Shown here: piece after piece, positions 53,360-57,736 of the stretch
Position numbering within the stretch: position 1 is the first letter of the stretch
Layout of the letters: each line of letters begins with the position of its first letter
Assembly: GCA_965228895.1 (NCBI GenBank)
Contig: OZ245842.1
Location: forward strand, 2,080,001 to 2,144,000
DNA from: Alphaproteobacteria bacterium
GTDB taxonomy: Bacteria; Pseudomonadota; Alphaproteobacteria; SP197
Length of the DNA: 64,000 bases
Direction: 5' to 3'
Translations under genes and position numbers: made by a program
The notes under the pieces: generated by a model
Database searches by the model: none
What the model was told of the DNA's origin: nothing
Seen by the model: only the letters and a program-made list of their open reading frames with translations

Positions 53360-56628
<3,269 letters not shown>

Positions 56629-56720: not shown

Positions 56721-57257
56721 CTACTCCGCCGCCGAAATATGTACCGCCGCGGGGGTTATTTCCAGACTGACGGGCGTTTCGCCGCCGATGATGTCGAGCA
56801 CCGGGCAGTGACGATCAACCGTCGCTTTCAGTTCTTCCAGTCGTTCAATCGGCGCTGGGCTATCGATGTCCACGCTGCCACGAATGGCGGTGAAACCCGG
56901 TCGGACGTCCTCGTTTGCGGCGGTAAAGCCGCTCAAGTCGATATCGCCCTCCAGGTGCACCGACACGCCATCCAGCGGGATGCCCAGGCGATCGGCGTAG
57001 AGTCGGTAGGTGATTTCCTGGCATGACGCCAACGAGGCCAGGATCAGCTCGACGGGGTTCGGGCCCTTGTCCGTGCCGCCGAGCGCCTCGGGTTCGTCGA
57101 CATCCAGGAAGAAGTTCCGCGTATTGACCCTGCTGTGCAGGCCCGCGATTTGGCGACTGGTCGCGCTGAATGTCGCTTGTGCCGCTTCGTTGTCGGCAAC
57201 AAAGGTGTCGCGCAGACCGTTGAAGCCATCGCGATAGGCAAATTGTTCCGTGGTCAT
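56721..57257 (-). CDS. OsmC/Ohr family protein
   Basis: DEPEALGGTDKGPNPVELILASLASC and HCPV, carrying both family cysteines; SD AAGGAG before the ATG at 57257. Confidence 0.88.
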   Translation of the reverse strand: MTTEQFAYRDGFNGLRDTFVADNEAAQATFSATSRQIAGLHSRVNTRNFFLDVDEPEALGGTDKGPNPVELILASLASCQEITYRLYADRLGIPLDGVSVHLEGDIDLSGFTAANEDVRPGFTAIRGSVDIDSPAPIERLEELKATVDRHCPVLDIIGGETPVSLEITPAAVHISAAE

Positions 57258-57312
57258 CGTCTGTCTCCTTGAACCACCGTTATCAAACGGGCCCACGGGA
57301 GACTTCCCGTGG

Positions 57313-57361
57313 CGCTTTAGCGGTTGGCGACGCGGACGCAAGCTGCCCCTCAAATCCCGCG
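57313..57361 (-). ncRNA. SAM-II (SAM-alpha) riboswitch aptamer 2, gene-proximal
   Basis: RNA CGCGG-GAUUUGA-GGGGCA-GCUUGCG-U-CCGCG-UCGCCAACC-GCUAAAGCG: P1 stem, GAUUU loop, UUGC and the 3' GCUAAA pseudoknot arm. Confidence 0.8.
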
Positions 57362-57386
57362 GGTCCCTTCGGGGAACCAAGCCAAC

Positions 57387-57420
57387 AAAAAAACCGCCTC
57401 AGCGTGGTGCCGGGCGGTTT
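57387..57420 (-). terminator. Intrinsic terminator between the two SAM-II aptamers
   Basis: RNA AAACCGCC-N14-GGCGG followed by seven U. Confidence 0.75.
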
Positions 57421-57434
57421 GAAACGTGGTCCGG

Positions 57435-57488
57435 CGCTTTAGCTGGTATTTTTAGAGCGCCCCGCAAGCTGACAATCAAATCGGCGCT
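57435..57488 (-). ncRNA. SAM-II (SAM-alpha) riboswitch aptamer 1, promoter-proximal
   Basis: RNA AGCGCC-GAUUUGA-UUGUCA-GCUUGCG-G-GGCGCU-CUAAAAAUACCA-GCUAAAGCG; it lies upstream of metY, a typical SAM-II target. Confidence 0.85.
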
Positions 57489-57615
57489 GATGAATCTTAA
57501 ATCACTATCGCTTGCGGGTTGTCAAGCGGTTCCCGCCGGCGGCATTCGCACAGGTGACATGGCCACCTTGCCGTGATGGCAGGGCAGACAGCGCTCACGG
57601 ATGTGTCGAAGTACG

Positions 57616-57644
57616 TTGACCTTGCGCCCGTCACCTCTAAGAAT
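57616..57644 (+). promoter_or_regulatory. Candidate sigma70 promoter for the polyamine-binding protein
   Basis: TTGACC-N17-AAGAAT, about 90 nt before the ATG. Confidence 0.4.
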
Positions 57645-57736
57645 CCCAATCGCTGGGCGGACACACCCCCCTTTCGATGGTGTCGCCTAAGCGGGAACCA
57701 AGTGAACGTCACGAGCGACAGAGGAGAGAGCTCACA

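Follow-up and report, generated by a model that had tools for sequence, protein, structure and literature searches.

A conserved SAM-II / terminator / SAM-II arrangement and its probable role in two-layer SAM control ahead of an OsmC-like gene in Alphaproteobacteria

The window, i.e., the whole 64-kb stretch of DNA analysed here, carries on its minus strand an OsmC-like gene of 178 amino acids (56721-57257; Pfam OsmC, 4.3e-23), followed by metY, encoding O-acetylhomoserine sulfhydrylase (55339-56628; Pfam Cys_Met_Meta_PP, 2.5e-120; TIGR01326, 620.5 bits against a cut-off of 495), and hemB, encoding delta-aminolevulinic acid dehydratase (54318-55334; Pfam ALAD, 9.1e-134). The OsmC-like protein also matches the NCBIfam model for the OsmC-related (seleno)protein at 80.8 bits, below its cut-off of 95. 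A conserved hairpin with a GGCGGCGGAG loop overlaps the OsmC stop codon (56755-56709, minus strand), and a terminator-like, G+C-rich hairpin of 16 bp follows it (56704-56669, minus strand); the GGCGGCGGAG block gave weak, scattered rows against Rfam and no convincing match. The upstream neighbour is divergent and encodes a solute-binding protein on the plus strand.

The leader of the OsmC-like gene, also on the minus strand, begins with a -35-like TTGACA read from the sequence (57520-57525), a site that the promoter scan missed because its -10 element is weak, and transcription would start a few bases upstream of P1 of the first aptamer (57488). Aptamer 1, of the SAM-II class, spans 57497-57419 according to its RF00521 match, with P1 formed by AGCGCC (57488-57483) and GGCGCU (57461-57456), the L1 motif GAUUUGA (57482-57476), GCUUGC (57469-57464), and the tail GCUAAAGCG (57443-57435). 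An intrinsic terminator follows (57420-57387), composed of the stem AAACCGCC / GGCGGUUU, an inner stem CGGC/GCUG, and seven U in total. Next come the hairpin H0 (GGUUCC / GGGACC, 57378-57362), adjoining P1 of aptamer 2, and aptamer 2 itself, a SAM-II variant (57361-57289; RF00521 match 57370-57297), with P1 formed by CGCGG (57361-57357) and CCGCG (57335-57331) and with the motifs GAUUUGA (57356-57350), GGGC (57348-57345), GCUUGC (57343-57338), and again GCUAAAGCG (57321-57313). A further hairpin, H1 (CCACGGGA-AGUC-UCCCGUGG, 57312-57293), stands between the 3' strands of P2b and P2a, the latter being the GCCC at 57292-57289, the distal partner of the loop GGGC and our candidate for P2a. In the MFE folds, a small hairpin, H2 (CCGUU-UGAU-AACGG, 57290-57277), shares the last two C of this GCCC. 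The Shine-Dalgarno sequence (SD) AAGGAGAC (57270-57263, with GGAG at 57268-57265) and the AUG of the OsmC-like gene (57257-57255) complete the leader. Much of this had been listed in a preliminary description of the same DNA, namely two aptamers with GAUUUGA, GCUUGCG, and differing yet pairing P1 stems, a terminator between them, and two small hairpins plus an SD after aptamer 2, and all of these features are found on the minus strand as described. A promoter-like site inside aptamer 1 (57475-57448) was judged to be a chance match, its hexamers falling in core and loop positions that differ among relatives. A transcript from this site would meet the terminator anyway.

Infernal searches against Rfam at gathering thresholds returned no match in the 64-kb window. 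A local E-value search of 57150-57700 returned full-length SAM_alpha (RF00521) matches for aptamer 1 (34.3 bits, E 4.7e-6) and for aptamer 2 (24.5 bits, E 0.0021), both below the RF00521 gathering score of 36 bits, while SAM_V (RF01826) and SAM-II_long_loops (RF01726) were absent from the ten rows that this interval gave at E up to 10. The two SAM-II hits that the preliminary description expected of such a search were thus obtained, neither of them at gathering score. Searching the whole genome recovered the same two aptamers (E 1.1e-5 and 0.005) among five SAM_alpha rows with E up to 1. One of the other rows is a canonical SAM-II element of 77.6 bits with a metZ-like gene downstream (judged as metZ by eye, from the N-terminus), which indicates that this organism uses the SAM-II class. 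Another, at 31.5 bits, is an aptamer-1-like element with its own terminator upstream of an ORF for the CysG N-terminal domain (TIGR01470, 78.5 bits against a cut-off of 62.3). The fifth row, at 17.8 bits, was taken as noise.

The same models recognize the orthologous leaders. Aptamer 1 orthologues match RF00521 in 13 of 14 relatives (28.4-41.8 bits), with the gathering score reached in four of the 14 (36.9-41.8 bits), and aptamer 2 orthologues match in 17 of the 19 relatives' loci (24.5-30.1 bits), none of which reaches 36. Both aptamers of all aligned relatives but one variant (L016/L081) retain GAUUUGA, GCUUGC, and GCUAAAG; in this variant, several P2b and L1 positions are changed together without a simple Watson-Crick pattern. 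The P2b motifs of aptamer 1 (loop GCUU, tail AAGC) and its U-rich L1 are present and invariant in the aligned leaders, and P2b therefore cannot covary. According to the text of Huang and Lilley (PMC6061858), the SAM pocket of SAM-II and SAM-V is built by the U-rich L1, CUU, and AAAG. We infer SAM to be the ligand of both aptamers.

A DNA search of 41 genomes (the window genome and 40 relatives) gave a match in 24 of them. Both aptamers and the terminator are present in 15 genomes, i.e., the window genome and 14 relatives, distributed over five genera (three genomes each in genera g1, g2, and g3, five in g4, and one in g5), and the layout of promoter, aptamer 1, terminator, aptamer 2, and SD is kept across all 15. 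The aptamer 2 part alone, with a promoter of its own, occurs in other genomes of g4 and in one more distant genome. We also scanned public genomes with a pattern made from the invariant parts of aptamer 2 and obtained at least 119 loci, which among the matches listed belong mostly to Rhodospirillales-like Alphaproteobacteria, with record names such as Thalassobaculum, Nisaea, Dongiaceae, Stellaceae, Kiloniellaceae, Ferrovibrio, and Aliidongia. Seven of these loci end at a contig end, leaving 112 that can be evaluated; among the matches listed, an aptamer-1-type core lies 117-155 nt upstream in about 30 of the 112, and 82 have none. The order aptamer 1, terminator, H0, aptamer 2 is constant in every tandem locus among the matches listed, and TTGAC stands 33-37 nt upstream of aptamer 1 P1 in all 29 readable tandem leaders among them. 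In the tandem leaders the stretch from the terminator to H0 is too short for another promoter, and with a single conserved promoter both aptamers would be carried on one transcript. The tandem arrangement of SAM-II, terminator, and SAM-II is real and conserved, and in view of the conservation of both aptamers, of the terminator, and of their order, chance does not account for the aptamer matches.

Covariation is visible in both P1 and the terminator of the first half of the leader. P1 of aptamer 1 consists of six pairs, the outermost being A-U in nine and C-G in four of the 15 sequences in the RNAalifold consensus, and the remaining pairs are nearly invariant in these sequences; P2a, as read from the alignment, has at most 1-3 bp. 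The terminator hairpin is predicted by RNAfold as well as by RNAalifold, with two stem pairs showing both-sided changes in five and four of the 15 sequences, and each of the 26 unique tandem leaders parsed among the matches listed has a hairpin with a U run. A simple terminator scan missed the hairpin at 57420-57387 because its loop exceeds the limit of the scan.

The relatives support an antiterminator in which the aptamer 1 tail would base-pair to the terminator loop on its 3' side. The tail bases just 5' of AAAG read GCGGCUA, GCAGCU, GCCGC, or CCAGCU in different relatives, and the 3' side of the terminator loop carries the respective complements UAGCCGC, AGCUGC, GCGGC, and AGCUGG. Over the 26 unique leaders among the matches listed, this duplex has a native mean of -10.70 kcal/mol, which no shuffle out of 5000 attained, against -8.94 kcal/mol for non-native combinations; the shuffle figures overstate the significance because related sequences are not independent. 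In 22 of the 26 leaders among the matches listed, the duplex borders on the terminator 3' arm or runs into its beginning. Given that no linker is left between the tail duplex and the terminator stem, the two should be unable to coexist on steric grounds. In the window itself the pairing comprises only 4 bp (CAGC/GCUG, -6.4 kcal/mol), and the antiterminator effect may therefore be weak here. The pairing put forward earlier, UUUGA with UCAAA plus GGGCG with CGCCC, did not hold up in the alignment, UC(A/G)AA being found in three of the 15 aligned leaders, all from the window's genus. In the mechanism that we propose for this first layer, the free tail of aptamer 1 would act as the antiterminator; on binding of SAM, the tail (..CCAGCUAAAGCG) would be locked in the P2b triple helix and thereby withheld from the terminator loop, so that the terminator at 57420-57387 would form and transcription would stop.

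It may be asked whether aptamer 1 and its terminator are mainly a small riboswitch-derived RNA gene, acting in trans or giving a stable by-product, with aptamer 2 as the sole cis regulator. Such an RNA has precedents in Sinorhizobium meliloti, where terminated SAM-II leaders build up at high SAM as the sRNAs RZ and RA1/RA2, according to the text of Scheuer et al. (2022; PMC9373788), and aptamer-1-type elements with a terminator also stand alone, as the one before the cysG-like gene of the same genome does. However, neither a gene nor a second promoter lies between the terminator and aptamer 2, and among the matches listed the fixed-distance TTGAC occurs only upstream of aptamer 1 and the order of elements is the same in all tandem loci. 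A terminated sRNA would be a by-product of the first layer anyway and would be compatible with cis control, and we regard an RNA gene as the main role of this element as improbable.

The second aptamer departs from the family consensus in several respects. Counts were made on 109 distinct aptamer 2 sequences among the matches listed. Because GGCAGCUUGC and GCUAAAGCGCCACGG were set in the search pattern, P2b and the 5' strands could not vary in this set, whereas the H1 3' strand and GCCC were left free. Within this set, H0 has both-sided changes at all six of its pairs; it is also kept in the RNAalifold consensus of the 15 leaders and is present where aptamer 2 stands alone. P1 pairs in every sequence (100%), a C-G pair being replaced by U-A once, and the P2a pairing GGGC/GCCC is likewise 100% paired, its outer pair being G-C in 106 sequences and A-U, U-A, and G-U in one each. 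Position four of P2a pairs in all 86 unique combinations among the matches listed, including UGGC/GCCA (L082) and AGGC/GCCU (L119). The basal pairs of H1 are invariant and its upper pairs are A-U in 50, G-U in 28, G-C in 27, and C-G in three sequences (among the matches listed). Taken as a whole, the structure has 93.9% of its cells paired against 90.2% in shuffles, with ten pairs showing both-sided changes; in none of 500 shuffles was the observed value of any of five whole-structure measures reached, and sliding the partners lowers the pairing from 93.9% to 51% or less. A P2a longer than 4 bp was considered and rejected, the mean helix length being 4.52 against 4.45 in shuffles, with 1011 of 5000 shuffles as high.

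In the SAM-II family consensus the P2a 3' strand follows one base after AAAG. In aptamer 2, by contrast, the P2b-P2a 3' strand is not contiguous: a hairpin of variable length, H1 (17-40 nt), parts AAAGC from GCCC in all GCCC-bearing loci (116 of 119, among the matches listed). The L3 of aptamer 2 is rich in C instead of A, and two hairpins are added. The U-rich L1, CUU, and AAAG are invariant in the 109 sequences among the matches listed, where the search pattern required them, and the 20 relatives found by DNA similarity, without the pattern, keep them as well. Aptamers 1 and 2 are thus, by their sequences, clearly distinct SAM-II subtypes. Each subtype also occurs alone, and the pair is a combination of the two, not the result of a recent duplication; the homo-tandem of the preliminary description does not apply in any simple sense.

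The SD is found some 45 nt downstream of the aptamer 2 P2b strand and hence not inside P2, the location described for metX SAM-II and SAM-V in the texts of PMC6061858 and PMC3326309. The loop and 3' arm of H1 (GUCUCC) are complementary to GGAGAC of the SD (57268-57263) and would form an anti-SD, worth -10.7 kcal/mol in the near-identical locus L033. Over 85 distinct H1 sequences among the matches listed, the complementarity between H1 and the ribosome-binding site (RBS) averages -13.75 kcal/mol for native and -11.69 kcal/mol for non-native combinations, and the native mean was reached by none of 5000 and none of 3000 shuffles. The matches exceed the generic CUCC/GGAG, as for AAGUCUCCC with GGGAGACUU in L037. 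The 3' half of H1 is better by at least 3 kcal/mol in 39 of the 85, and in ten of the 85 it is instead the 5' half that matches the RBS or start region, e.g., with -20.7 kcal/mol in L098 (both counts among the matches listed). By these comparisons, the match between H1 and the RBS exceeds what chance would produce. For either half, such complementarity would serve a purpose only when repression entails an open H1. We also considered whether the 5' arm of H0 might pair with the GGACC that precedes the SD; this was rejected, since H0 changes to GAUCC/GGAUC in relatives in which the SD-proximal GGACC is unchanged.

Given these observations, we propose that read-through transcripts carrying aptamer 2 would be subject to a second layer of control. 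The base of H1 overlaps the P2 strands, so that P2 formation driven by SAM would weaken H1, and the freed anti-SD would pair with GGAGAC of the SD (57268-57263) and block translation of the first gene. RNAalifold lengthens H1 by two G-C pairs, formed by GC of AAAGC with GC of GCCC; since these pairs use P2 bases, P2 formation would have to remove at least them. Folding under constraints gave a mixed picture. The probability that the window SD is unpaired was 0.79 in the free leader, 0.61 with the tail GCUAAAGCGCC blocked, and 0.81, i.e., little changed, with GCUAAAGC and the distal GCCC blocked, which amounts to no clear switch in the window leader. Blocking the tail GCUAAAGCGCC was the only model that occluded the SD, bringing its unpaired probability to 0.01 or less in nine of 20 relatives. 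The direction of switching, off with SAM, is thus deduced from the gene functions, and the opening of H1 by SAM is likewise our inference.

Taken together, we consider it probable, at roughly three chances in four, that the leader holds two SAM-II-class riboswitches in series on one transcript, giving two-layer SAM control ahead of the OsmC-like gene, metY, and hemB. A terminator after aptamer 1 and an SD after aptamer 2 would provide the two layers. The assignment of termination to aptamer 1 and of translation to aptamer 2, as originally suggested, fits the comparative evidence on the layout; the simple homo-tandem, the antiterminator, and the background from which that description started do not hold.

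A different role of aptamer 2 would follow if SAM locked H1 in a three-way junction of P2b, H1, and distal P2a and left the SD free, so that aptamer 2 would be neutral or would turn translation on and repression would come from the first layer only. The distal GGGC/GCCC pairing has compensatory changes and encloses a closed H1; this covariation-supported partner of P2a would keep H1 closed, and under the distal constraint the SD is just as accessible as without any constraint (unpaired probability 0.81 and 0.79, respectively). Activation by SAM would, however, be hard to rationalize for genes of sulfur, methionine, and SAM biosynthesis or uptake, and the RBS matches the 3' half of H1 in most loci, with ten of 85 using the 5' half instead (among the matches listed), and either pairing needs H1 to open. 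We therefore hold this outcome to be unlikely, and continue with SAM-dependent repression at both layers as the preferred reading.

Among the matches listed, the genes after aptamer 2 include metY, cysG, DUF2849 with sulfite reductase, hemB, a rhodanese-domain gene, and metN. cysG (siroheme synthase) follows in at least 39 loci and the OsmC-like gene in at least eight, all of them tandem. A set of sulfur, methionine, and siroheme genes suits a repressor that senses the end product, SAM, and in the window both aptamers stand ahead of methionine/SAM-related genes (OsmC-like gene, metY, and hemB). That aptamer 2 no longer senses SAM, and is instead a sensor of a related metabolite or a structured leader with SAM-II-like motifs, might be argued from its scores below threshold in all relatives, its C-rich L3 and two extra hairpins, and a regulon wider than usual for SAM-II (cysG, sulfite reductase, and hemB included), yet the persistence of all three pocket elements in the 109 sequences among the matches listed, where the pattern required them, and in the 20 relatives found by DNA similarity makes this very improbable.

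The strong terminator-like hairpin between the OsmC-like gene and metY counts against control of metY by the leader, and in the relatives no cobalamin or other known riboswitch was found downstream of aptamer 2 at E up to 0.5. The output of aptamer 2 may be relayed to metY and hemB by the translation of an ORF, either short or OsmC-like, whose end lies inside the second conserved hairpin, next to the terminator. This relay is part of a broader and quite tentative proposal, in which aptamer 2 would be an uncatalogued SAM-II subclass folding as a three-way-junction pseudoknot, with H1 serving both as a part of the aptamer and as the expression platform, one half of which swaps to the RBS. Such a subclass would be widespread in Rhodospirillales-like Alphaproteobacteria, where standard models report none, and would govern genes of sulfate assimilation, siroheme, and methionine.

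The tandem leader is one more example of a catalogued design and by itself changes little. Standard annotation misses it, no Rfam gathering match being present in the window. Of more consequence is aptamer 2, a well-conserved and distinct variant with at least 119 copies, which ties predicted SAM sensing to cysG, sulfite reductase, and hemB, and whose natural series of H1/RBS pairs offers ready compensatory variants for the study of pseudoknot control of an SD about 45 nt past P2b. The aptamer 2 architecture and the exchange between H1 and RBS are the only parts of the system that may be new. The published work on SAM-II with cysG or in Rhodospirillales, as far as its listings and the text of Leyn et al. 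(2014) show, describes no H1-type variant, and Leyn et al. report SAM_alpha only in Rhizobiales and Rhodobacterales, with none in nine Rhodospirillales genomes.

Tandem riboswitches of this kind are known from earlier work. The text of Sherlock et al. (2022; RNA Biol 19:1059; PMC9481103) counts 44 tandem SAM-II/SAM-II riboswitches, among them pairs in which a terminator follows the upstream aptamer and the downstream aptamer is placed at the RBS as well as pairs with a terminator after each aptamer, and classes these pairs with the SAM-II/SAM-V "bi-mechanism" tandems. The preliminary description had taken the known tandem to be SAM-II plus SAM-V, and with these 44 in print since 2022 the novelty claimed there falls. 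Like some of them, the window leader combines a SAM-II aptamer that has a terminator with a second one placed at an RBS, presumably on one transcript; it differs in that its two aptamers are clearly of different subtypes, the text of Sherlock et al. giving a count without sequences. The SAM-II/SAM-V tandem of 'Candidatus Pelagibacter ubique' (Poiata et al., 2009, as cited in the texts of PMC9481103 and PMC6061858) is similar as well, since a transcriptional SAM-II is followed by a translational SAM pseudoknot and both aptamers serve the same ligand. The second aptamer of the window, in contrast, has no SAM_V match, and its SD is located about 45 nt past P2b and not inside P2a.

With the SAM-II class as first described (metA motif; Corbino et al., 2005; PMC1273637, as given in its text), the window leader shares the P1 hairpin, the motifs GAUUUG, GCUUGC, and GCUAAAG with a predicted loop/tail pseudoknot, a promoter just before P1 (here the TTGAC), a terminator after P2, and methionine genes downstream. 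It departs from that class in the P2a of aptamer 1, of 1-3 bp at most, and in the 5' hairpin and inserted hairpin of aptamer 2; a P2a of 2 bp, similar to that of aptamer 1, is described for metX SAM-II and SAM-V (Huang and Lilley, PMC6061858). The view that SAM-II normally acts singly and at the level of translation, from which the preliminary description set out, needs correction, given that intrinsic terminators are reported for many SAM-II representatives (Corbino et al., 2005) and that SAM-II switches are, by the texts of PMC6061858 and PMC1273637, mostly transcriptional. The metZ and metA leaders of S. meliloti (PMC9373788), as described there, provide parallels to both halves of the present leader, as they include SAM-II combined with a terminator to yield a short RNA and a translational SAM-II placed far upstream of the start. 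In S. meliloti these are single aptamers on separate genes, whereas here both functions would be placed in series in one leader.

The first gene under the predicted SAM riboswitch in the window, immediately before metY, encodes an OsmC-family protein (56721-57257, minus strand) with two cysteines, in LASCQE and DRHCPV. Such a gene lies downstream of aptamer 2 at 8 of the 119 loci listed from a scan of public genome records with at least 119 matches to the aptamer-2 pattern, and all eight of these loci carry the tandem.

Sequence comparison with the loci of relatives revealed a conserved hairpin that overlaps the OsmC-like stop codon. It lies, with a terminator-like hairpin, within window positions 56755-56661 (minus strand) and recurs at loci L009, L010, L013, L016, L017, L021-L025, L031, L043, L055, L074, L081, L095, L104, L136 and L144. 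The loop contains an invariant GGCGGCGGAG, and the stem shows compensatory differences between genera, reading CCCC-C-GCGGCGG/CCGCCGC-A-GGGG in the window and, in two other genera, CUUCGGCAG/CUGUCGAGG and CCCGGCAG/CUGCCGGG. The G+C-rich terminator-like hairpin (16 bp) follows on the 3' side, and metY or hemB comes next. Relatives that have no OsmC-like gene carry an ORF of 37-70 codons with a variable body and the same end point at the hairpin. Since the reading frame across the conserved block differs between lineages, its conservation is at the level of the RNA. No convincing match to this block was found in Rfam. Through the hairpin, read-through into metY/hemB may be coupled to how the upstream ORF is translated, a step predicted to be controlled by aptamer 2.

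Aptamer-1-type elements also occur outside the tandem. A second SAM-II of this type in the source genome (L003; contig C1, 5303225-5303302, minus strand, 31.5 bits) is solitary, has its own terminator and is located about 200 nt upstream of an ORF whose N-terminal domain is of the siroheme synthase type (TIGR01470, 78.5 bits); accordingly, cysG of this genome seems to be subject to a single layer of SAM control. In one genus, the tandem is preceded at a distance of about 1.3-1.4 kb by an extra aptamer-1-type SAM-II with a terminator (L018, 2956-3054, minus strand; L020, 137-224, plus strand; genome G008, contig C18, 31898-31951), and two predicted SAM-controlled units are arranged side by side there.

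In one lineage (L016, 1491-1560, plus strand, and L081), the element at the aptamer 1 position has ligand-pocket motifs altered by a linked set of transitions (GAUUUGA to GGUUCGA, GCUUGC to GCUCGC, CAAAU to CGAGU and GCUAAAG to GCCGAAG) and gave no Rfam match at E-values up to 0.5; aptamer 2 of this lineage is normal. This aptamer 1 is either decaying or of altered specificity.

The reverse complement of aptamer 1 and the terminator is matched in Rfam by RF02424 (Bp2_287), a candidate "sRNA" family from Burkholderia, at 23-33 bits in the window (57388-57529, plus strand) and at L020, L018, L007, L008 and L003. This alignment suggests that the RF02424 family represents the antisense strand of a SAM-II-like leader and its terminator.
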